The translations under genes and the position numbers were made by a program. Under the pieces are notes generated by a model that saw only the letters and a program-made list of their open reading frames with translations, did not search any database and had not been told where the DNA came from. This document shows, piece by piece, positions 18,890 to 34,864 of a stretch of 64,000 bases of DNA. This DNA comes from Pseudohaliea sp. (GTDB taxonomy: Bacteria; Pseudomonadota; Gammaproteobacteria; Pseudomonadales; Halieaceae). The DNA lies in contig NZ_JAVJOA010000001.1 in the NCBI RefSeq assembly GCF_040217025.1, positions 104,528 to 168,527 on the forward strand, read 5' to 3'. Position 1 is the first letter of the stretch, and every line of letters starts with the position of its first letter.

Positions 18890-21800
18890 ATACACCCCGC
18901 CCGACCGCCGGCGCGGCGCCGTCGCATGGATGGCGCGCAACCCCGTCGCCGCCAACCTGCTCCTGCTCATCGTGGTGGTCGCGGGCCTCTACGCCATGCA
19001 GGCCCTCGACAAGGAGGTTTTCCCCTCCTTCCCCACGGAGACCTTCACGGTCACCGTGCCCTACCCCGGCAGCTCCCCGGAAGAGGTAGAACGCGGCATC
19101 ATCCTGCGCATCGAGGAGGCGGTGCGCGATATCGTCGGCATCAAGGAGATCCGCAGCGAGGCCCGGGAAGGGGTGGGCGTGGTGACGGTGCGCATGGAGC
19201 CCGGCAGCGACATGGCAAAGGCCGTGAACCTCGCCAAGGTGCGCGTCGACGGCATCTCCTCCTTCCCCGCCGACGCCGAGAAGCCCATCGTCGAGGAGAT
19301 CGAGGCCGCCACCGGGGCGATCCGCGTGAGCCTGTTCGGCGAGATCGAGCCGACGAAACTCAAGGAACTCGCCGAGGAAATCCGCGAAGAGATTCTCGCC
19401 CTCGGCAACATCAGCGAGATCGCGGTGCTCGGCGAGCGCGACTACGAGATTTCGATCGAGCTGTCAGACGAGCGCATGCGCCGCTACGGACTCACCTTCG
19501 ATGCCGTGGTGAACGCCATCCAGCAGCGCTCCCGGGACCTGCCCGGGGGCCTCCTGCGCACCGATGCCGGCGCGATCACCCTGCGCTCGACGTCCCAGGC
19601 CTACCGCGGCCGGGAGTTCGAGCAGCTCACGCTCATCAGCCGCGACGACGGCACGCGCATCCGCCTCGGCGACATCGCCACGGTCCGCGACGGTTTCGCC
19701 GATCAGCCGGTGCTATCGCGGGTGAACGGCGAACCCGCGCTGACCTTCGATATCGATCGCGTCGGGGCGCAGGACGTCCTCGAGATCACCGCGCTGGTAA
19801 AGGACTACGTGGCGGAGAAGCGGGCGGAACTGCCGGAGGGCATCGGACTTCAGGCCTGGGGTGACCAGAGCCGGATCCTCCGCGGCCGTATCGAGCTCAT
19901 GCTGCGCAACGCCGCGTCCGGGGCGATCCTGGTGATCATTGCCCTCGCCCTGTTTCTCGACCTCGCCCTGGCTTTCTGGGTCGTCGTCGGCCTCCCCTTC
20001 GCCGTGCTCGGCTGCCTGGCGACCATCGGCTTCCTCGGCCTGCCCGTGTCCATCAACGTGCTCTCGGTCTTCGGCTTCATCCTCGTGCTCGGCCTGCTGG
20101 TGGATGACGCCATCGTCACCTCGGAGAGCGCCTATACCTCGCTCGAGAATGAGGGCCGTGGCGTCGACAGCGTCGTCGGCGGGGTGCAGCGCGTGACCAC
20201 CGCCACGGTCTTCGGCGCCCTGACTACCGCCGTGGCCTTCGGGCCGAGCCTGTTCCTCACCGAGGGTTTTGCGCGCATCCTGTCGCAGCTGGGCTACGTG
20301 GTGATTTTCTGCGTGGTCTTCTCGCTCATCGAGACCAAGCTGGTGCTCCCCGCGCACCTGCGCCACATCCGCGTCCCGCAGCCGGGCGACCGGCTGGGCC
20401 CCGTGCGGCGCTTCCAGCAGCGCGTCTCCCGGGGCATGATCGCCTTCGCCCGCGGGCCCTACCGCCGAATGCTGGCGAAGGCCGTGCATTACCGCTACAC
20501 CACCCTGGCCCTGTTCCTCGCCGGCCTCATGGTCTGCCTCGCCCTGGTGCCCGCGGGAATCCTGCGCGTGGTGTTCTTCCCCTCCGTGCCCTCGGACGCC
20601 ATCGAGATCAACCTCGACATGCCCCAGGGCACGCCCTGGCAGCGGACCCACGACTATGCCGGGCGCATCGAGGACGCGGCCCGGGCGATGAACGAGCGCT
20701 TCAAGGCCCAGGACCCCGCGGGCCGCGATGTCATCCGCACGCTGCACCTGCTCTCGGAGACCGACACCTCGGCGCGGCTGATCATCGAGCTCATCGTGAG
20801 CGAAGAGCGTGACATCGACTCGGTGGAACTCGGCGGCTGGCTGCGCGAGGAGCTCGGCACGCTGCATGGGGTGCGCTCCTTCCGCCTCGACGCGGCGGCT
20901 GGCCCCGGCGGTTCGCCGATCGATGTGCAGCTGCGTGGCCGCGACCTCGAGCAGCTGCGCCAGGCGGCGAGCGAGCTCAAGCTGCAGATGGCCCAGGTCG
21001 ACGGCGTGCGCGACATCCGCGACAGCTTCAATGCCGGCGGCCGGGAGCTGGATATCCGCGTGACGCCCGAGGGCGAGGCCCTGGGCCTCACGGACGTGGA
21101 GCTGGCCCGGCAGGTGCGCCAGGCCTTCTTCGGCGCCGAGGTGCAGCGGGTGCAGCGCGGCCGCGACGAGGTGCGCGTCTACGTGCGCCTTCCGGAAGAG
21201 GACCGCACGCAGCTCGACACGCTGCAGGAACTCTGGATCAGCCTGCCGAACGGCAACCGCGCCCCCTTCTCCGTGGTCGGCCACGCGCGGGAACAGGCGG
21301 GCCTCAGCGTGATCAACCGCATCGACCTGTCGCGGGTCGTGGACGTGCAGGCCGACGTCGACAAGGCGCTGATCTCCACCACGGAGGTGATGGACCTGAT
21401 CGAGCGCGACATGCTGCCCGACATCCTCGCCCGGCACCCCTCCGTGCGCTACACCGTTGCCGGCGAAGTGGAAGAGCAGCGCGACACCTCCCAGGCCCTG
21501 CTCTACGGCGGCCTGCTGGTGCTGCTGCTCATCTACGCGGCGCTGGCGATTCCGCTGAAGAGTTACCTCGAGCCGCTGCTGATCATGTCCGTGATCCCCT
21601 TCGGCGTTACCGGTGCCTTCCTCGGCCACCTGATTCTCGGCATGGACGTGAGCATCCTCTCGGCCATCGGCATCATCGGGCTGGTGGGCGTGGTGGTCAA
21701 CGACAGCCTCGTGCTGGTGGACTTCATCAACCACTTCATCGACGAGGGACATGACTGGGAGGAGGCGGTGCTGGAGGCAGGCCCGACCCGGTTCCGCGCC

Positions 21801-22016
21801 GTCATGCTGACCTCCCTCACCACCTTCATCGGCCTGCTGCCGATCCAGCTGGAGACGTCGATCCAGGCCCAGTTCGTCAAACCCATGGCCACCTCCGTGG
21901 CCTTCGGCGTGTTCTTCTCGACGGCGGTCACGCTGTTCCTGGTGCCGACGCTGTACTACGTGTCACAGGATATCCGGCGGGCCGTCGCCCGGCCCCGGCT
22001 GGCGCGGACATCCTGA
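18882..22016 (+). CDS. RND efflux permease (AcrB/AcrD/AcrF family)
   Basis: 1044 aa with a 12-TM/2-loop architecture. NPVAANLLLLIVVVAG at the N-terminus and typical GLLVDDAIV and VVNDSLVLVD motifs. Confidence 0.93.
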   Translation: MAEYTPPDRRRGAVAWMARNPVAANLLLLIVVVAGLYAMQALDKEVFPSFPTETFTVTVPYPGSSPEEVERGIILRIEEAVRDIVGIKEIRSEAREGVGVVTVRMEPGSDMAKAVNLAKVRVDGISSFPADAEKPIVEEIEAATGAIRVSLFGEIEPTKLKELAEEIREEILALGNISEIAVLGERDYEISIELSDERMRRYGLTFDAVVNAIQQRSRDLPGGLLRTDAGAITLRSTSQAYRGREFEQLTLISRDDGTRIRLGDIATVRDGFADQPVLSRVNGEPALTFDIDRVGAQDVLEITALVKDYVAEKRAELPEGIGLQAWGDQSRILRGRIELMLRNAASGAILVIIALALFLDLALAFWVVVGLPFAVLGCLATIGFLGLPVSINVLSVFGFILVLGLLVDDAIVTSESAYTSLENEGRGVDSVVGGVQRVTTATVFGALTTAVAFGPSLFLTEGFARILSQLGYVVIFCVVFSLIETKLVLPAHLRHIRVPQPGDRLGPVRRFQQRVSRGMIAFARGPYRRMLAKAVHYRYTTLALFLAGLMVCLALVPAGILRVVFFPSVPSDAIEINLDMPQGTPWQRTHDYAGRIEDAARAMNERFKAQDPAGRDVIRTLHLLSETDTSARLIIELIVSEERDIDSVELGGWLREELGTLHGVRSFRLDAAAGPGGSPIDVQLRGRDLEQLRQAASELKLQMAQVDGVRDIRDSFNAGGRELDIRVTPEGEALGLTDVELARQVRQAFFGAEVQRVQRGRDEVRVYVRLPEEDRTQLDTLQELWISLPNGNRAPFSVVGHAREQAGLSVINRIDLSRVVDVQADVDKALISTTEVMDLIERDMLPDILARHPSVRYTVAGEVEEQRDTSQALLYGGLLVLLLIYAALAIPLKSYLEPLLIMSVIPFGVTGAFLGHLILGMDVSILSAIGIIGLVGVVVNDSLVLVDFINHFIDEGHDWEEAVLEAGPTRFRAVMLTSLTTFIGLLPIQLETSIQAQFVKPMATSVAFGVFFSTAVTLFLVPTLYYVSQDIRRAVARPRLARTS

Positions 22017-22100
22017 GCGCGACGCCAACCCCCGGGGTGAACTCGGGGACGATGCCCTGAGCTGCTATGCTCCCGGCGTTGTCGGCCCGGGAGACCGCCC

Positions 22101-22583
22101 ATGGATTTCAGCTACAGCCCACGCGTCGAAGCCCTGCGCCAGCAGCTCTGGCAGTTCATGGACCGTTACATTCTCCCGCGGCTCGGGGCCTGGCGCGCGG
22201 AGGTAAGCGCCGGGCAGTACCCGGTGTCCTTCATGGAGGACCTGAAGGAACTCGCCCGCGACGAGGGGCTGTGGAACCTGTTCCTGCCCTCCCTGAAAGA
22301 CGGAGAGCCCGGCACGCGCCTCAGCAACCTCGAGTATGCGCCGCTCGCCGAGATCATGGGCCGCGTGCCCTGGGCCTCGGAGGTGTTCAACTGCAACGCG
22401 CCGGACACGGGCAACATGGAGGTGCTGCACATGTTCGGCAGCGAGGCCCAGAAAGCGCACTGGCTCGAGCCGCTGATGCGCGCTGAGACGCGCTCCGCCT
22501 TCGCCATGACCGAGGTCGCGCTGGAGCTGAAGCAGCAACAGGAACAGCTCGACCGGGTCAGCGCCTATCTCGCCGGCGCCTGA
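22101..22583 (+). pseudogene. Truncated acyl-CoA dehydrogenase (N-terminal about 145 aa of a FadE/ACAD10-like enzyme)
   Basis: MDFSYSPRVEALRQQLWQFM ... LEYAPLAEIMGR ... FNCNAPDTGNMEVL ... RSAFAMTE matches ACAD N-terminal domains. It then diverges (VALELKQQQEQLDRV...) and stops. The middle and C-terminal domains are absent, and the 3' end overlaps the convergent acpH. Confidence 0.75.
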
Positions 22584-23161
22584 ACCCCTTCTGCGGCGAT
22601 CGCCGCCTGGACGTCGGCGAAGACCAGCAGGAAGCACGCCTCAAGGCCCGCCTCTTCGCTGGCCACCGTGTCCACGAGAGCCGCCACCGGCAGCGGCCGC
22701 CGGCGCCGTTCGGCAAGCCGTTCCAGCACGGCGGCGACGCCCTCGAGGGTCTCGTAGGCGCGCAGCCACTGCGCGTCCGCCCAGGCCGGCCCCAGGCTCG
22801 CAAAACCCGCGGGCAGCCAGGGGCGGTACTCGTGGATGACCCGGTAGACCGCCTGGCGGAACGGTTCCAGGGGCTCCGCGGCAAAGCGATGCCAGTGGCG
22901 ACACAGAAAGTAGTCAAAAGCGATGTCCAGGGCCACGCCCGCGAAACGCCTCTGGCCTGCGGGGAAAACGGCCAGGGCCTCGCCATAGGCGTCGTGTGCG
23001 TCGGTCAGCGCATCGACCCGGCGGTGCCGGCGGACACCGGCCGCAACGCGCGGGTGCAGCGCCTGCCCCTCGAGCGGGCCCTTGACATGGTCGCCGGCGA
23101 CATTGCCGATCAGCGCGCCCGGGTCGGGCTGGGCAAGCAGGGCGTGGGCGAGGTAGTTCAC
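22565..23161 (-). CDS. acpH: Acyl carrier protein phosphodiesterase
   Basis: GTG start giving VNYLAHALLA. HRRVDALTD, DIAFDYFLCRHW and AQWLRAYE align with my recollection of E. coli AcpH (HRRIDVLTD, DVMWDHFLSRHW, EQWLVRYR). Confidence 0.85.
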   Translation of the reverse strand: MNYLAHALLAQPDPGALIGNVAGDHVKGPLEGQALHPRVAAGVRRHRRVDALTDAHDAYGEALAVFPAGQRRFAGVALDIAFDYFLCRHWHRFAAEPLEPFRQAVYRVIHEYRPWLPAGFASLGPAWADAQWLRAYETLEGVAAVLERLAERRRRPLPVAALVDTVASEEAGLEACFLLVFADVQAAIAAEGVQAPAR

Positions 23162-23174
23162 GAGGAACCCGCGC

Positions 23175-24311
23175 TCAGGCGACGCCCGCCGCGCGCAGCG
23201 CCTCCAGCGCCCGGTCGATGTCCGGCTCATCGTTGTAGATGTGCGGCGACAGGCGGAAGCCCAGGGCCCGCCGATCCACCTGTACGTCGGCGGCGGCGAA
23301 GGCATCGGCCACGCTGTCGTTGGCGCTGCCGAAATCGAGGATCACCGTCCCGCTGCGCGCGTCCGGATCCGCCGGAGAGACGCGGCCTTCGGCGGGCACG
23401 CCCGCGCGCAGCCGGTCGCCCAGGGCAAGGTTGTGGCCGCGGATGCGGGTCAGGCCGATCTCCTGCAGGCGCTCGATGCTGTGCGCCGCAATCGCGTAGG
23501 GAGCGATCGACGGCGTGCCGCCCCAGAAACGCAAGGCTCCCGGGTGGTAGCGGAAGTCATGGATGTCGAAGGCAAACGGGTCTGCGTGGGAGAACCAGCC
23601 GACCGCATCCGGCTCGCAGCGCTCGACCAGCGCCGGGGCTACCCAGAGGAAACCGGCACCCGGCCCGCCGCAGAGCCACTTCACGCAGGAGCCGAGCAGA
23701 AAGTCCGCGCCGATGGCCCGCACGTCGACCGGCAGGATGCCCACCGCCTGCGCCGCATCCACGACGCTGAGCGCACCGGCCTCGCGGGCGGCTGCGCAGA
23801 CGGCCTGCACCGGCACCTGGACGCCCGTGTTCGACTGCACCTGCGTCACCAGCACGAGCGCCGTGTCGTCGCCAAGCGCTGCCCGCCAGGCCGCCGGGTC
23901 GCGCTCGTCGACAGCCGCCGGTAGAAAGCGCGGCGCGAGGCCGAGACTGCGCGCCCGCTCTGCCACAAAGCCCAGGGAGGGGAAGGCGCGCTCGCTGAGC
24001 AGGATTTCCCGGCGCGTGGTGAGGCCGGGCACACACTGGAGCACCCGCGCAAAGCCGGTGGAAACGTCCGGTTGCGGGCAGAGGTCGTCACCGCGCGCGC
24101 CCAGCAGCTCGCCCAGCGCGGCCCGAAAGCGCTCCACCGCCTGCAGCCAGGCGGGCCAGGGTTCGCCGGCGCCGCCCGCCCAGGGATCGTAGAACGCCGC
24201 CGCGAAGGCCTCCCGGCTATCCACCGGCGGTCGACCGACGGAATGGTTGAGCAGGTAGGTACCCGGGCCAAGATCAAAACGGTCGCGCAGGGCCGAGGCT
24301 TCCGGGCTCAT
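23175..24311 (-). CDS. Kynureninase-family PLP-dependent hydrolase (aminotransferase class V fold)
   Basis: DFLLGSCVKWLCGGPGAGFLWV matches the kynureninase PLP-lysine segment (CxYKYLNGGPGA). 378 aa. The start overlaps the upstream stop (ATGA). Confidence 0.75.
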   Translation of the reverse strand: MSPEASALRDRFDLGPGTYLLNHSVGRPPVDSREAFAAAFYDPWAGGAGEPWPAWLQAVERFRAALGELLGARGDDLCPQPDVSTGFARVLQCVPGLTTRREILLSERAFPSLGFVAERARSLGLAPRFLPAAVDERDPAAWRAALGDDTALVLVTQVQSNTGVQVPVQAVCAAAREAGALSVVDAAQAVGILPVDVRAIGADFLLGSCVKWLCGGPGAGFLWVAPALVERCEPDAVGWFSHADPFAFDIHDFRYHPGALRFWGGTPSIAPYAIAAHSIERLQEIGLTRIRGHNLALGDRLRAGVPAEGRVSPADPDARSGTVILDFGSANDSVADAFAAADVQVDRRALGFRLSPHIYNDEPDIDRALEALRAAGVA

Positions 24312-25477
24312 GCCAGGCTCTCCCGCAGCCGCCGGATATCGGGGTGGCGCGAGGGGATATCCTCGCGGTCGGCCGCCTGGCGCAGGTCCCGCAGTCTCGC
24401 CAGCGCGCGCATGAGCACCGGCAGCGGCGGCCCGCTCGCGGTGAGGTTGTCCTGGTGCTGCTCGCCGATATGCTCGGCCGGCTTCTCGATGAACTTCGCC
24501 ACCAGCTGGTCGTGGTGCTGTGCCGCCGTCTGCCCATGCAGTTCGCAGACCTCGAGGAACAGGGCGAGGTTCTCCCGGCAGGGTGACGCCCGGCGCGCCG
24601 CCTCCGGCAGGTCGAGAAAATCATCCATCAGGCTGCGCCGGCGCATGCAGTCGCGGAGGATGACCTGGTCCTCGGGCATCATGTAGAGGAACTTGTCCAC
24701 GAGCAGCTGCGAGTAGTACGCATGGTCGGCACGGCAGAGGCCGAGGAGCATGTCGATGACGTTGATGCCTGCGAAGTCACCCGCGTTGGCGCCGCGGTAC
24801 ACGTGCTGGGCGACCCGGTGCGGCTTGAAGTAGGGGCGCACGCAGTAAAAGAAGCGGTCCGTGTCGAGCTCGGCGAAGAGACGCTCATTGGAAGCGACCA
24901 CACCGGCCAGCGCGCTCTTCGCCATGCGCAGGAGGTCCGCGGTCACCGGGTGCCGCACGCCCAGGGGCAGACTGCGCAGCAGCGCATCGGCCGCGGCCTT
25001 GTAACCGAGGATGCCGCGCGTGTTGTAGTCGGTGAACAGGTACTCGTCGCGGAGCGTGGTGAAGCTCTTGTAGCGGCCATCCACGGCGCGGTTGTGGGTG
25101 GTGAGGTGGCTGGTGGCAAAGCGCGGCGTCACGCCCAGGCTGGCGCCGAGCTGCAGGGCCAGGGCCGAGGCCTCGGGCAGCCCGCCATCCTTCGCGTCCT
25201 GGTCCGCCGCACCGTGGCGGGCACAGGCGGCCATGAACAGGCCGACGTTGCCGAGCAGGTCGAAGCCCGCATCGAAGCCCTCGTCCGTGTTGCCCTCGGC
25301 CAGCAGGCGGGCGACGTGTTCGTTGCCCTCGACCTTGAGCCGGGCCTTCAGGTCCTCCCCGACCCCGGCGACCTGTGCGCGGTCTGCCTGCGCGAAATAG
25401 GCTTCTTCGAGCCGTGTATTGAGTTCCGCAAAGGTGCTGCGAATCCAGTGGTCGAAGCGTTCGGCGTTGGTGGTCAT
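24308..25477 (-). CDS. PrnB/IDO-like haem-dependent aromatic oxygenase family protein (DUF1864-like)
   Basis: RFFYCVRPYFKPHRVAQHVYRGANAGDFAG resembles the PrnB segment [21 protein letters not shown] as I recall it. All-helical composition. Start at the internal ATG (MTTNAERF). Confidence 0.6.
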   Translation of the reverse strand: MTTNAERFDHWIRSTFAELNTRLEEAYFAQADRAQVAGVGEDLKARLKVEGNEHVARLLAEGNTDEGFDAGFDLLGNVGLFMAACARHGAADQDAKDGGLPEASALALQLGASLGVTPRFATSHLTTHNRAVDGRYKSFTTLRDEYLFTDYNTRGILGYKAAADALLRSLPLGVRHPVTADLLRMAKSALAGVVASNERLFAELDTDRFFYCVRPYFKPHRVAQHVYRGANAGDFAGINVIDMLLGLCRADHAYYSQLLVDKFLYMMPEDQVILRDCMRRRSLMDDFLDLPEAARRASPCRENLALFLEVCELHGQTAAQHHDQLVAKFIEKPAEHIGEQHQDNLTASGPPLPVLMRALARLRDLRQAADREDIPSRHPDIRRLRESLA

Positions 25478-25568
25478 GCGGGGATTATACGTGTGAAGCA
25501 CCGTGGGAGCTGTATCCTCCGCCCCGGCGGCAAACTTGCACGGTGAGCCGAAGATGATCACCTACGGA

Positions 25569-25584
25569 TAGCACAGCTGTGCTA
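25569..25584. promoter_or_regulatory. Perfect 16-bp palindrome TAGCACAGCTGTGCTA (candidate antitoxin operator)
   Basis: Read directly, 34 nt upstream of the antitoxin ATG. An extra ATAGCA half-site lies at 25595-25600. Confidence 0.5.
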
Positions 25585-25617
25585 CATTCTTCGCATAGCA
25601 TGGAAGGGGAACGCAGC

Positions 25618-25896
25618 ATGAGCACGACAACGATTCGCCTGCCGGAACAACTCAAGAAACGCCTTGGTGAGGCGGCGCGGAAGGCAGGCCTGACGCCCCA
25701 TGCCCTGATCATCCAGGCCATCGCGGAACGTGTCGACGCCGAGGAAAAGCAAGGGAGTTTCATCGCCGAGGCGGAAGCGCGCTACGATAACCTTGTCTCG
25801 ACGGGCGAGGCCATTTCCTGGCCGGAGATGCGTAACTACCTCGAAAACCGCCGCGCCGGCAAACGCACCAGGCGGCCTCGCACTCGCAAGCTGTAG
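25618..25896 (+). CDS. Ribbon-helix-helix (CopG/ParD-like) antitoxin
   Basis: MSTTTIRLPEQLKKRLGEAARKAGLTPHALIIQAIAERV is an RHH motif. GGAAGGGGA RBS. It lies 16 nt upstream of the toxin gene. Confidence 0.8.
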   Translation: MSTTTIRLPEQLKKRLGEAARKAGLTPHALIIQAIAERVDAEEKQGSFIAEAEARYDNLVSTGEAISWPEMRNYLENRRAGKRTRRPRTRKL

Positions 25897-25912
25897 CCCG
25901 GCCCGGGAAACA

Positions 25913-26206
25913 GTGGCCCGCATCGAACTGGCACCAGAGGTCGGCGACGATATCGAGCGCATTCTGCAGCATCTGGAGGACCACGACGCCGCCCATCTCC
26001 AGCAGAGACTGCGCGAACTGATTGACGCGCTTTCTGTACTGGAGCACAACCCGGCGATCGGACGCCTCGTGCAGGGCGACCTCCGGGAGCTCATCATCGG
26101 TAGCAACGCCCGCGGCTACGTCGCCCTCTATTGCTACATCGCTGCCATTGACACGGTCTTCGTACTGGCGCTGCGAAGCCAGCGGGAGGCCGGCTACTCG
26201 CGCTGA
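25913..26206 (+). CDS. RelE/ParE-family type II toxin
   Basis: GTG start. 97 aa. The pattern DDIERILQHL ... NPAIGR ... LRELII ... YVALYCY ... VFVLALRSQREAGY fits ParE-like toxins. Confidence 0.75.
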   Translation: MARIELAPEVGDDIERILQHLEDHDAAHLQQRLRELIDALSVLEHNPAIGRLVQGDLRELIIGSNARGYVALYCYIAAIDTVFVLALRSQREAGYSR

Positions 26207-26211
26207 CTGCG

Positions 26212-28374
26212 CTAGAGGTGCTCGCGGAAGTAGCGCGTCATGGTGCTGAAGACATGCAGGCGATGGTCGGCGATGCCGTGGCGCTGGTTGGGGTAGACCA
26301 GCATATCGAACTGCTTGTTCGCGCGGATCAGGGCATCCGCGAACTGCAGCGTGAAAGCGAACTTCACGTTCTCGTCGCCGGTGCCGTGGATGAGCAGCAG
26401 CTTGCCCTGCAGCCGGTCTGCGTAGTTCACCAGGTTCACCCGGGCGTAGCCTTCGGGGTTCTCCGCGGGGGTTCCCATCCAGCGTTCCACGCCCACCGCC
26501 TGGTAGCGGGTGAGGTCGATCACCGGCGCTACACTCACCGCCACCTTGAACAGCGGCGCGGCCTTGGTCATGAGTGCTGCCGCTAGGTAACCGCCGCCGC
26601 TCCAGCCCCAGAAGCCGATACGGTCGCCGTCGATCCAGGGCAGCGAGTTCAGGTAGTCGACCCCCTCGATGTAGTCGAGCACCGCCCACTTGCCATACTC
26701 GCCGTAGGTCAGGTTCTTCGCCGCTTTGCCGCGCCCGGTCGTGGTGCGGTTGTCCATGGCGAACACCACGTAACCTTCCTGCGCCAGGTAGCGGTGCCAC
26801 AGGTCCTGGGTAGGACCGCGCTGCGTGCCCCAGCGGTTCACGACGACCTGCGAGCCGGCGTTGCCGTAGCCATAGGCGATCACAGGGTAACGCTTCGCCG
26901 GGTCGAAATCCGGCGGCTTGATGACGAAGGCATTGAGCTCGATGCCGTCGTCTGTCTCGAAGGAGACGAACTCCGTGTGCGCCATGGCGTAGTCGTCGAA
27001 GGCCGGAACCGCGTCATCCGCGAGCACCGACAGGCGCTCGCCGTCCGCAGCAAGCAGCTGCAGCGTGGGTGGCGTGCGCGCATCTGAGTGGGTGGCCAGG
27101 GCGTAGCGGCCGTCCGGCGAGAGCTGCCACCGGTGCCAGCCCGGCGCGCTGGTCACGCGCTCCACCGCCCCCCCGTTCAGCGCAACGCGGTAGACGTGCT
27201 GGTCGATCAGCGACTCGCGCTTGGCGTAGAAGTATGCCCACCCTTCCTTCTCGTCGACGCCGATCACGTCGCCCACGGTCCACTCACCCGAGGTGAGCGG
27301 TTGGGCCTTGCCATCCGCTGTAATGCGGTAGAGATGCCGCCAGCCGCTGTCTTCGCTGGTCCAGAGCACGGAACCGTCGGCGAGGGGGGTCAAATCATCG
27401 GTGATATCGATCCAGGCGGGATCCGTATCCGTGTGCAGGAGTTCCACGCCTTCCCCGTCCGCTCCCGCGCGCCACAGGCGCAGGGTCTTGTGGTCCCGGG
27501 TCAGGTGCTGGACGTAGAGGTGCTCGCCGGTAGAGTCCCAGTGCAGCTGGGGCAGGTAATCATCGGCATCGTGGCCGATGTCGATCGCGCTGGTCTTCGC
27601 CGTGCGCAGGTCGTAGACACGCACCGCATTCACGGCGTGCACCTCACCCGTATTCGGGTAGTGGAAATCGCGCACACGCGGGTAGCTGTGCAGCTCGTCG
27701 ATCAGCGGATAGCGCGGTACCGCGCCGGCGTCCATGCGCCAGTAGGCAATCCGCCCCCCGGTAGGGGACCAGCGCCAGCCGTCCAGCCAGCCGAACTCGG
27801 TGCTGCCGTAGTCAAAGATGCCGTTGAAGACAGCTTCGTCGCCGTCACCGGTGACCGCCGTGGTCTCGCCCGTGCGCAGGTCGACCACGTAGAGGTTGTT
27901 GTCGAGGACGTAACCGGCATGCAGCCCGTCCGGGGACAGCTTGACCAGCTGCACCGGCCGATCGTCATCGCGCAGCGGGCGGGCGCGCCCGGCTTCGACA
28001 GCATAGTGGTACCAGCGGGCGCTGCCGTGGCCCTGCCAGTCGTTGGTGACCGGGCCGCGCAGCAGCAGCACATCGCGGCCGGCATGCCACTGGTAGTCCG
28101 TTACTTGCAATCCCGCCGGCAGCCCCGGCACCGCGGCAAGGGACAGCACACGCCCCCTGCCCTTGACGACGTCGTGGCTGATGAGGGCCGGACCGTCGGC
28201 GCCACTGTCGAGATAGGCGTAGCGCGCATCCGTCGGCAGCCACTGGAGGGCGCCGGGCATCCTGGCGGTGAAGGTATCGCTGGTGAAGATCGTCGCCAGG
28301 TCCAGTGCTTTGCCGTCCAGTGCCGCGGCTGGAAGCGCCAGCGCGAGTCCGAGCGCGGCCCCGCAGCGGAGCAT
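26212..28374 (-). CDS. Dipeptidyl-peptidase IV (S9B family), exported
   Basis: DPPIV N-terminal beta-propeller region plus the S9 catalytic domain (GFWGWSGGGYLAA, HGTGDENV). The signal peptide starts at MLRCGAALGLALALPAAA. Confidence 0.9.
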   Translation of the reverse strand: MLRCGAALGLALALPAAALDGKALDLATIFTSDTFTARMPGALQWLPTDARYAYLDSGADGPALISHDVVKGRGRVLSLAAVPGLPAGLQVTDYQWHAGRDVLLLRGPVTNDWQGHGSARWYHYAVEAGRARPLRDDDRPVQLVKLSPDGLHAGYVLDNNLYVVDLRTGETTAVTGDGDEAVFNGIFDYGSTEFGWLDGWRWSPTGGRIAYWRMDAGAVPRYPLIDELHSYPRVRDFHYPNTGEVHAVNAVRVYDLRTAKTSAIDIGHDADDYLPQLHWDSTGEHLYVQHLTRDHKTLRLWRAGADGEGVELLHTDTDPAWIDITDDLTPLADGSVLWTSEDSGWRHLYRITADGKAQPLTSGEWTVGDVIGVDEKEGWAYFYAKRESLIDQHVYRVALNGGAVERVTSAPGWHRWQLSPDGRYALATHSDARTPPTLQLLAADGERLSVLADDAVPAFDDYAMAHTEFVSFETDDGIELNAFVIKPPDFDPAKRYPVIAYGYGNAGSQVVVNRWGTQRGPTQDLWHRYLAQEGYVVFAMDNRTTTGRGKAAKNLTYGEYGKWAVLDYIEGVDYLNSLPWIDGDRIGFWGWSGGGYLAAALMTKAAPLFKVAVSVAPVIDLTRYQAVGVERWMGTPAENPEGYARVNLVNYADRLQGKLLLIHGTGDENVKFAFTLQFADALIRANKQFDMLVYPNQRHGIADHRLHVFSTMTRYFREHL

Positions 28375-33607: not shown

Positions 33608-34864
33608 GTGCTTCCCGTGTCAAAACTGCGTTTTCCTGTCGCCCTGGTGGCACCGCTGTCGATCTTCGCCGTGGCTGCCGCGAGCAACGCCGAGGTCACG
33701 GTCGGCAACCCCGCAGTAGCCTGTGCCGAGGACCCGGCCTGCATGAACCGGATCCATCCCGCCATACCGATGGTCGCCACGGCGGAGCCGGGGGAGCGCA
33801 TCGTGTTCGTCGGTCGCGATGCCTTCGACCTCTCCCTGGACCCCGACGAACTGTCCAGCGCGCCGGCCATCCCGCGTGAAGGCATCGGCATCGTCCACGC
33901 GCTGACCGGCCCGGTCGCCATTCGTGGGGCACGGGCGGGCGATGTGCTGGCGGTCACCATCGAGGCGCTGGAGCCGGCGGCCGTAGGCTGGACCGAGGCC
34001 GGCCCCTTCGGCTTTGCCGGGGAGCAGTTCGGACAGGACGGGCGCTTCATCGTCTGGCGCATCAATGAGGAATACGCGGTCAGCGATGCGTTACCGGGGG
34101 TGCGTATCCCCAATGCCGCATTCCCCGGCGTCGTGACCACGCTGCCCGGGGAGCGCCTGCTGGCGGAAGTGCTCGAGCGGGAAGGGGAACTGCTGGCACT
34201 GGGCGGCACAGTGCTGCCCCCCGATCCCGTTGAGGCGCAGCCCGCAGCGCTGTGCGGCCCCGGGGGAACGCGGGCTTCCGAGTGCCTGCGCACGATCCCG
34301 CCGAGGGAGCACGGCGGCAACATGGATATCCGCTACATCACCACGGGGACCACCGTCTACCTGCCCTGCCAGATCGATGGCTGCGGCCTGGCGGTGGGTG
34401 ACTTTCACTACGCCCAGGGCGATGGCGAGGTGTCCGGGACGGCCATCGAAATGGGCGGCGAGCTCACCGTGACCACGCGCATTGTGAACGGTGGGCCGGA
34501 CCTGTCCCACGGCCCGCACTATGAAGGTCCCGCGTCGGTGCTGCGCATCCCCTCCGAACGCTTCTATGCGGTCACGGGTTTCCCGCTCAAAGCGCCGGGC
34601 AGCGTTCCCGCGAACATGGCCTACCTGGCTTCGGACCGGGTCGCCGGCCTCTCGAACCTCTCCGCTGATGTTCACCTCGCCGCACGCAACGCGCTGGCTG
34701 CGATGATCGATTACATCGTGACGGAGTACGGCTACGACCGGGCTCAGGCCTACATGATCGCCAGCGTCGCAGTCGATCTGCGGATCGGGCAGCTGGTCGA
34801 CGTGCCGAACGTCGGCGTCACCGCCGTGCTGCCGCTGGACATCTTTACCGGCGAACGGCACTGA
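33608..34864 (+). CDS. Acetamidase/formamidase-family amidohydrolase with signal peptide
   Basis: GNMDIRYITTGTTVYLPCQIDGCGLAVGDFHYAQGDGEVSGTAIE is the FmdA/AmdA core. The N-terminal LRFPVALVAPLSIFAVAAASNA looks like a Sec signal. Confidence 0.85.
   Translation: MLPVSKLRFPVALVAPLSIFAVAAASNAEVTVGNPAVACAEDPACMNRIHPAIPMVATAEPGERIVFVGRDAFDLSLDPDELSSAPAIPREGIGIVHALTGPVAIRGARAGDVLAVTIEALEPAAVGWTEAGPFGFAGEQFGQDGRFIVWRINEEYAVSDALPGVRIPNAAFPGVVTTLPGERLLAEVLEREGELLALGGTVLPPDPVEAQPAALCGPGGTRASECLRTIPPREHGGNMDIRYITTGTTVYLPCQIDGCGLAVGDFHYAQGDGEVSGTAIEMGGELTVTTRIVNGGPDLSHGPHYEGPASVLRIPSERFYAVTGFPLKAPGSVPANMAYLASDRVAGLSNLSADVHLAARNALAAMIDYIVTEYGYDRAQAYMIASVAVDLRIGQLVDVPNVGVTAVLPLDIFTGERH

Follow-up and report, generated by a model that had tools for sequence, protein, structure and literature searches.

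A predicted SO4414-type haem protein and a kynureninase-like enzyme form a conserved gene pair in Pseudohaliea, beside an AcpH-family gene

What reaction might a haem protein and a kynureninase-like enzyme carry out together, and does the acyl carrier protein (ACP) phosphodiesterase encoded directly behind them belong to the same pathway? These questions are raised by three co-directional genes on the minus strand of a 64,000-nucleotide stretch of the Pseudohaliea sp. contig NZ_JAVJOA010000001.1 (positions 104,528 to 168,527), hereafter the window. An earlier note on this DNA had read the trio as one operon that may oxidise and cleave an aromatic substrate in an undescribed way, perhaps on or linked to a carrier protein. 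Judged by synteny across related genomes, the conserved functional unit is instead the pair of genes 1 and 2, a widespread two-gene module first seen in Shewanella (SO4414/SO4413). The genes and their junction lie in the window as follows.

24308..25477, minus strand: gene 1, a predicted SO4414-type haem protein of PF08933/DUF1864 (PrnB-IDO superfamily), 389 aa from ATG
23175..24311, minus strand: gene 2, a predicted kynureninase-like class-V pyridoxal 5'-phosphate (PLP) enzyme, 378 aa
22565..23161, minus strand: gene 3, an AcpH-family ACP phosphodiesterase, 198 aa from GTG, with an ACP_PD match
24308..24311, minus strand: the ATGA stop/start overlap of genes 1 and 2, read from the sequence

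The overlap at the junction of genes 1 and 2 (...CTG GCA TGA / ATG AGC CCG) is consistent with translational coupling. It was correctly read in the earlier note, as were the shared direction of the three genes, the 13-nt gap ahead of gene 3 and the quoted peptides RFFYCVRPYFKPHRV, YRGANAGDF, AAQHHDQLVAKF and SCVKWLCGGPGAGF, all of which are present in the translations. The two proteins also occur as a natural fusion of 767 aa (P0241), which was the top match of an exhaustive representative search and carries PrnB at residues 4-386, Aminotran_5 at 423-758 and KYNU_C at 30.4 bits. The 90%-identity cluster around this fusion counts 315 members, drawn from independent JGI, NCBI and ENA assemblies; many are full-length at 767 aa, and one is a Candidatus Thioglobus sp. 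protein. Taken together, the fusion and the ATGA overlap are strong evidence that the products of genes 1 and 2 act together.

Relatives of gene 1 were recovered from at least 553 species-representative genomes, all at 61% identity or above, and the family also includes thousands of metagenomic proteins. Within the Gammaproteobacteria they occur in Shewanella, Pseudoalteromonas, Vibrio, Thalassotalea, Halieaceae, Woeseiaceae, Lysobacterales and Candidatus Thioglobus, and beyond that class in Betaproteobacteria (Chitinimonas) and Bacteroidota. Clustering at 50% identity collapses the family to ~100 representatives (E <= 1e-30), many of which are fragments. Between this copy and those of Shewanella and Bacteroidota, identity is 61-65% for gene 1 and 40-50% for gene 2. 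Gene order was compared in the 80 best loci from species-representative genomes (hereafter species loci), which fall into the following arrangements.

48 of 80 loci: a gene 2 orthologue (40-52% identity) directly downstream on the same strand, with extrapolated gaps mostly of -15 to +30 nt
4 of 80 loci: a gene 2 orthologue adjacent in another arrangement
11 of 80 loci: a more distant class-V PLP gene (27-31% identity) within 6 kb
12 of 80 loci: no class-V partner, the downstream flank reaching 1.3 kb or more
5 of 80 loci: the contig ends too early

Altogether, a gene 2 orthologue stands beside gene 1 in 52 of the 80. Regulatory and transport genes are frequent neighbours: in 28 species loci gene 1 has a divergent Lrp/AsnC regulator 45-219 bp upstream, in seven a MarR regulator directly ahead of it, and several loci include an amino-acid transporter of the NSS or APC type; the NCBIfam names for these neighbours are generic only. 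With Lrp/AsnC or MarR control and the occasional transporter in other genomes, the module has the look of an operon that is induced for the catabolism or salvage of an amino acid. Among the species loci, neither sulfur-metabolism genes nor genes of the kynurenine pathway, formamidase and TDO included, occur recurrently next to the pair. The operon here likewise holds neither a formamidase nor a TDO gene, a point that the earlier note had made and that stands.

Two side observations concern loci with other arrangements. The alternative partner of the 11 loci (among them L003, L009, L018, L021-L023, L030, L044, L047 and L055) is closest to the cysteine desulfurase 5B7S, and these loci variously add an NSS transporter, a CDGSH iron-sulfur/cupin protein, a luciferase-like oxidoreductase, a threonine-dehydratase-like PLP enzyme or MarR. 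In Luminiphilus syltensis NOR5-1B (L002), gene 1 has no class-V PLP partner within 6 kb and is followed by a 470-aa open reading frame (ORF).

Gene 1 matches PF08933 (PrnB, formerly DUF1864) from end to end, with residues 2-388 on positions 1-387 of the 387-position model at 568.9 bits (cut-off 27). Against PDB structures it aligns with SO4414 (2NWB, 1ZEE) over residues 2-388 at E 1e-156 and ~60% identity in the Foldseek alignment, and a profile of 12 gene 1-family members reaches the SO4414 structures at 658 bits. The 2NWB entry is titled 'putative 2,3-dioxygenase (SO4414) in complex with ferric heme', and a survey of haem proteins treats 2NWB as the holo form and 1ZEE as the apo form (PMC3059290). 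True PrnB is matched at E 8e-8 (2V7I) and E 6e-4 (9DFG) with ~18% identity; identity to IDO1 is about 15%; and the Pfam models for IDO (PF01231) and TDO (PF03301) gave no gene 1 match at E <= 0.1.

The alignment between a profile of 12 diverse members and human IDO1, weak as it is (E 0.27), places H322 on the proximal His346, F209, F210 and R214 (FFYCVR) on F226, F227 and R231, G229-F235 (GANAGDF) on the G261-S267 segment, and T346-P351 (TASGPP) on the JK-loop segment. F209, F210, R214, G229-F235, H321, H322 and T346-L352 are invariant in the 12 members. The AlphaFold2 (AF2) model of gene 1 is poor, with a mean predicted local distance difference test score (pLDDT) of 69 and a template modelling (TM) score of just 0.53 to its own close homologue, and of the Foldseek results we kept only the ranking SO4414 > PrnB > IDO1, leaving the TM-scores unused. 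By sequence, gene 1 is a predicted haem protein of the PrnB/IDO superfamily, more exactly one of the SO4414 type, with predicted His ligation, and not a PrnB orthologue. The earlier description of gene 1 as PrnB/IDO-like thus holds at full length, and the proximal-His helix falls where the note had placed it. True PrnB was rejected as its identity on the E-value of 8e-8, the ~18% identity and the absence of pyrrolnitrin-pathway genes nearby, there being no halogenase-type (PrnA/PrnC-like) or other recognisable gene of that pathway within 10 kb on either side.

Gene 2 has a 95-bit match to Aminotran_5 and a weak one to KYNU_C in Pfam, and its sequence equals that of an NCBI protein from Pseudohaliea sp. 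(100% identity). Among PDB entries it comes closest to P. fluorescens kynureninase (1QZ9; E 8e-33, 26% identity), which a profile of 21 gene 2 orthologues finds at 124.6 bits and which is also the top Foldseek match (TM 0.88) of a well-scored AF2 model (pLDDT 91.5). In the profile alignment, K211 corresponds to the PLP-binding Lys227 and F110 to the stacking Phe129, GWFSH (G238-H242) stands for GWFGH, and GGTP stands for the bacterial CGTQP. The segment DRRALGFRLSP (DRRxxGFRLSP in the family) aligns with human DKRNPNGIRVAP, which puts R353 in the place of the substrate-carboxylate arginine. K211, F110, G238-H242 and R353 are all invariant among the orthologues.

The scores of gene 2 fall far under the cut-offs of all desulfurase models, and a gap lies opposite the SufS catalytic Cys loop (HH(C)A) in its profile alignment. 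This missing loop rules out a plain cysteine desulfurase, in agreement with the earlier note, which had called the protein kynureninase-like. We conclude that gene 2 is a predicted class-V PLP enzyme closest to kynureninase in layout that lies outside the kynureninase equivalog family.

We propose, with moderate confidence, that the pair is a two-step module in which the haem protein would oxidise a free tryptophan-like L-amino acid and the kynureninase-like enzyme would then cleave it; what we infer here is the substrate, together with the oxygen chemistry and products. Gene 1 would bind the free amino acid with its carboxylate held by Arg214, as in IDO1 and PrnB, and would oxidise the aromatic ring, most likely opening it in the manner of IDO to give a gamma-keto amino acid of the N-formylkynurenine type. 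Gene 2 would form an external aldimine with this product and cleave it hydrolytically between C-beta and C-gamma. The expected products would be L-alanine and an (N-formyl)anthranilate-type acid, released without a dedicated formamidase.

A number of observations weigh against this two-step proposal. SO4414 itself reportedly has no L-Trp dioxygenase activity in vitro, and the link from the gene 1 family to IDO1 runs through the weak alignment given above. The best NCBIfam model for gene 2, kynureninase TIGR01814, scores 81.7 bits against an equivalog cut-off of 246.4, and SufS-type structures fit the gene 2 model nearly as well as kynureninase does (TM 0.84-0.86 vs 0.88). Judged against two aligned kynureninases, those of P. 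fluorescens and human, gene 2 also departs from the type at several positions: Tyr226, which precedes the PLP lysine, is Val210 (CVK); the Asp of FPTD is Leu or Met in the family (FPSLG / FPSMG); DxAH is replaced by a SufS-like DxAQ; and two cysteines, C78 and C214, are invariant and specific to the family, with C214 near the PLP lysine. Gene 1 stands without a nearby class-V partner in 12 of the 75 species loci with enough flank. Candidatus Thioglobus is a streamlined sulfur-oxidising lineage, and the presence of the fusion in such a genome suits a catabolic role poorly. Finally, the Shewanella IDO-like proteins were said in a 2008 review of the TDO field to 'to date have no known function' (PMC2652831). 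Our searches of the accessible literature found no functional assignment for the DUF1864/SO4414/SO_4413/PF08933 family.

It is possible, and we put this forward only tentatively, that the module forms a formamidase-independent two-enzyme route on Trp or a modified Trp (e.g., halogenated or hydroxylated), or performs a new haem/PLP chemistry such as the formation and cleavage of a C-S bond. If true, action on a modified Trp or a new chemistry would account for the reported inactivity of SO4414 on L-Trp.

The same two proteins could also act together in a different way, with gene 1 catalysing an oxidation that leaves the ring closed (hydroxylation, 2-oxindole formation, a PrnB-like rearrangement, or oxidative C-S coupling of cysteine to an aromatic ring) and gene 2 serving as a beta- or C-S lyase like EgtE/Egt2, C-DES or PvdN. 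We consider this rather unlikely, if still the main rival. The reported lack of Trp dioxygenase activity in SO4414 would fit such chemistry, as would the gene 2 scores with the sufS (75.6 bits) and egtE (62.2 bits) models, close to that with kynureninase, and the SufS-type DxAQ together with the invariant Cys78 and Cys214. Genomic context adds the desulfurase-like partner in 11 loci, three of which have the CDGSH iron-sulfur/cupin protein alongside, and a rhodanese gene after gene 2 in one relative. Moreover, PrnB, MarE, TyrH and SfmD of the same haem superfamily do perform reactions of this sort (PMC11791213). These points have to be set against the kynureninase-specific GWFSH, GGTP and D-x-R-x(2,3)-G-x-R-x-x-P motifs, which are invariant in gene 2, against the first place of kynureninase among its matches in both sequence and fold, and against the absence of the desulfurase Cys loop from the protein and of a recurring sulfur-metabolism gene from the 80 loci. 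It is improbable, in our estimate, that gene 1 is instead a haem-binding sensor or storage protein whose adjacency to a PLP gene is a matter of regulation and not of successive catalytic steps. Since the structures of 2005-2006 no report of activity has appeared, gene 1 is unusually conserved (the 61-65% between Gammaproteobacteria and Bacteroidota compares with 40-50% for gene 2), and 12 loci have gene 1 with no PLP partner nearby. However, the substrate-binding Arg, the GxxAG segment and the JK-loop-like TASGPP are invariant, as is typical of catalytic IDO/PrnB pockets, and fusion to a PLP enzyme in a cluster of 315 members is more typical of enzymes that act consecutively.

The trio of the earlier note, a single pathway in which AcpH takes part and an acyl or peptidyl carrier protein bears the aromatic substrate or is linked to it, is the least probable reading, and we give it next to no weight. 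Gene 3 does belong to the AcpH family, as had been claimed, with a full-length ACP_PD match (182 bits, residues 1-183 on positions 1-182 of 183); against the E. coli-type AcpH equivalog model it scores 83 bits vs a cut-off of 331. Between the stop codon (TGA) of gene 2 and GTG AAC TAC CTC GCC CAC lie 13 nt (gcgcgggttcctc), a gap without any terminator-like site, so that acpH is probably co-transcribed with gene 2 by read-through from the pair. The order gene 1, gene 2, AcpH also recurs in one metagenomic relative (L083, 90% gene 1 identity), where an RND pump gene follows directly. Beyond this relative the trio dissolves: AcpH lies within 6 kb of gene 1 in none of the 80 species loci, and of the four close relatives with a readable downstream gene (P. 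rubra and three metagenome contigs) a single one has it adjoining the pair. In P. rubra, whose gene 1 homologue is 88% identical, a small ORF, PhoD and a TonB receptor lie downstream of gene 2; the 86% relative has a rhodanese gene there, and the 77% relative an unrelated ORF. A tethered substrate is also unlikely on chemical grounds, since both enzymes retain the arginines that hold a free alpha-carboxylate in their characterised relatives, a feature that a thioester-tethered substrate would not fit, PLP chemistry in gene 2 requires a free alpha-amine, and no carrier-protein, nonribosomal peptide synthetase or polyketide synthase gene lies within 10 kb on either side. On the synteny count and this active-site logic, we rejected both the carrier-linked substrate and the functional trio. 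AcpH is best described as a lineage-specific passenger in a narrow Pseudohaliea lineage, standing outside the two-gene module.

The remaining features of the locus concern its expression and its flanks.

25484..25489, minus strand: a TATAAT -10-like box, candidate leaderless promoter, read by eye and from alignment
22101..22583, plus strand: an acyl-CoA dehydrogenase remnant of 160 aa, N-terminal domain alone (Acyl-CoA_dh_N, 42 bits)
25618..26206, plus strand: an RHH antitoxin / ParE toxin pair, divergent from gene 1 (RHH_1 and ParE_toxin matches)

Gene starts can be read in more than one way. A longer gene 1 ORF of 417 aa would begin at a GTG at 25561, and the Pfam model begins at residue 2 of the 389-aa form; the automatic gene call starts gene 3 at an ATG at 23230, upstream of the GTG. 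The TATAAT box ends 6 nt before the gene 1 ATG, where there is no Shine-Dalgarno sequence. In five close relatives (L001, L082, L083, L084 and L085), a box reading GCGTATAAT or GCGTATACT lies 6-9 nt ahead of the gene 1 ATG, and it is retained even where the sequence farther upstream is unrelated (positions 25478-25492 in the window). A consensus promoter scan that required both hexamers found none upstream of gene 1, and an Rfam scan of 21800-26400 returned no match. The position of the box suggests that the gene 1 transcript is leaderless in this Pseudohaliea lineage, with the TATAAT box as its candidate promoter.

On the downstream side, the dehydrogenase remnant lacks the middle and C-terminal domains, is convergent with AcpH and overlaps its stop by 19 bp. 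About 600 bp containing this fragment (about 22006-22605) have no counterpart in L083, where AcpH abuts the RND pump gene; homology to that contig stops ~40 bp before the AcpH stop, and the last ~13 AcpH codons differ. On the upstream side, the RHH/ParE pair sits between a gene for a DPP-IV-type S9 peptidase and gene 1. P. rubra has no such pair at the corresponding position, its DPP-IV gene immediately preceding gene 1, and keeps genes 1 and 2 in the same neighbourhood between DPP-IV and the RND pump. We interpret the toxin-antitoxin pair, AcpH and the dehydrogenase fragment as local insertions or indels around a stably placed pair. The truncation junction and toxin-antitoxin module to which the earlier note had pointed are therefore real, but the accessory status that it drew from them does not extend to genes 1 and 2: an accessory or mobile pair is ruled out by P. 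rubra, where these two genes keep their DPP-IV ... RND surroundings while AcpH, the toxin-antitoxin genes and the dehydrogenase fragment are all missing.

Farther away, an FmdA/AmdA-family formamidase/acetamidase gene (257.6 bits) lies at 33608-34864 on the plus strand, ~8 kb from gene 1 and outside the operon. Around the Chalcone_3-Cupin_8-hydrolase block that the two genomes share, P. rubra has HicA/DUF1902 and phage-integrase genes and no FmdA-type gene. Nothing indicates that the FmdA-type gene serves as the missing formamidase, although no test was aimed at that role.

For the window itself, the analysis mainly removes the ACP-linked hypothesis and places the locus in a known orphan family. 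That family is widespread and unusually conserved, and it is still without an assigned reaction some two decades after its first structure. The pair is common in marine Gammaproteobacteria and Bacteroidota; should it provide an alternative means of cleaving Trp, this would close a gap in the aromatic amino-acid metabolism of ocean bacteria. The pairing with one kynureninase-like subfamily, the natural fusion and the Lrp/AsnC or MarR regulators and transporters make the question of function directly testable, and the fused protein and the ligand of the regulator offer practical handles on it.

Among known systems, the kynurenine pathway of IDO1/TDO and kynureninase (kynA-kynB-kynU, KynR) resembles the module in the FF-x3-R, G-x-x-A-G and proximal-His motifs, as far as the weak alignment carries, and in the kynureninase-like partner. 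The divergent Lrp/AsnC gene of 28 of the 80 relatives likewise parallels the KynR-kynBU layout of P. aeruginosa (PMC8707732). The module differs from that pathway in lacking a Pfam IDO or TDO match, in its ~15% identity to IDO1, in the absence of a linked formamidase across the 80 loci and in a gene 2 score under the equivalog threshold. PrnB (monodechloroaminopyrrolnitrin synthase; 2V7I, 9DFG) shares the Pfam family, the F-[FY]-x3-R-P-[FY]-x-P-x-R-V-G motif and the overall fold with gene 1, and is set apart by E 8e-8, ~18% identity and the lack of a pyrrolnitrin-pathway gene within 10 kb here. True PrnB is not known to have a class-V PLP partner. For gene 2, P. fluorescens kynureninase 1QZ9 has the PLP lysine, stacking Phe, GWF-x-H, G-T-P and C-terminal Arg in common; gene 2 is ~40 residues shorter, is 26% identical, and differs by Tyr226 to Val, the FPTD Asp to Leu/Met, the DxAH His to Gln, and the presence of Cys78 and Cys214.

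The closest counterpart is found in Shewanella. SO4414 of Shewanella oneidensis aligns with gene 1 from end to end and belongs to the same PF08933/DUF1864 family, and in related Shewanella loci the two genes follow one another in the same order, the gene 2 orthologues being 44-49% identical. SO_4413 is annotated as a kynureninase, and we take it to be the direct neighbour of SO4414, going by the locus numbers and not by a reading of the MR-1 genome. The present locus differs in its host (Pseudohaliea, Halieaceae, ~70% GC) and in its surroundings, with no adjacent Lrp/AsnC regulator, AcpH downstream and a toxin-antitoxin pair upstream. The idea of an undescribed system gives way to a family, DUF1864/SO4414, that has had crystal structures since 2005-2006. 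Overall, sequence and gene order identify the locus as a further copy of this known orphan family, in which an SO4414/DUF1864 haem protein is joined by a putative kynureninase-like partner.

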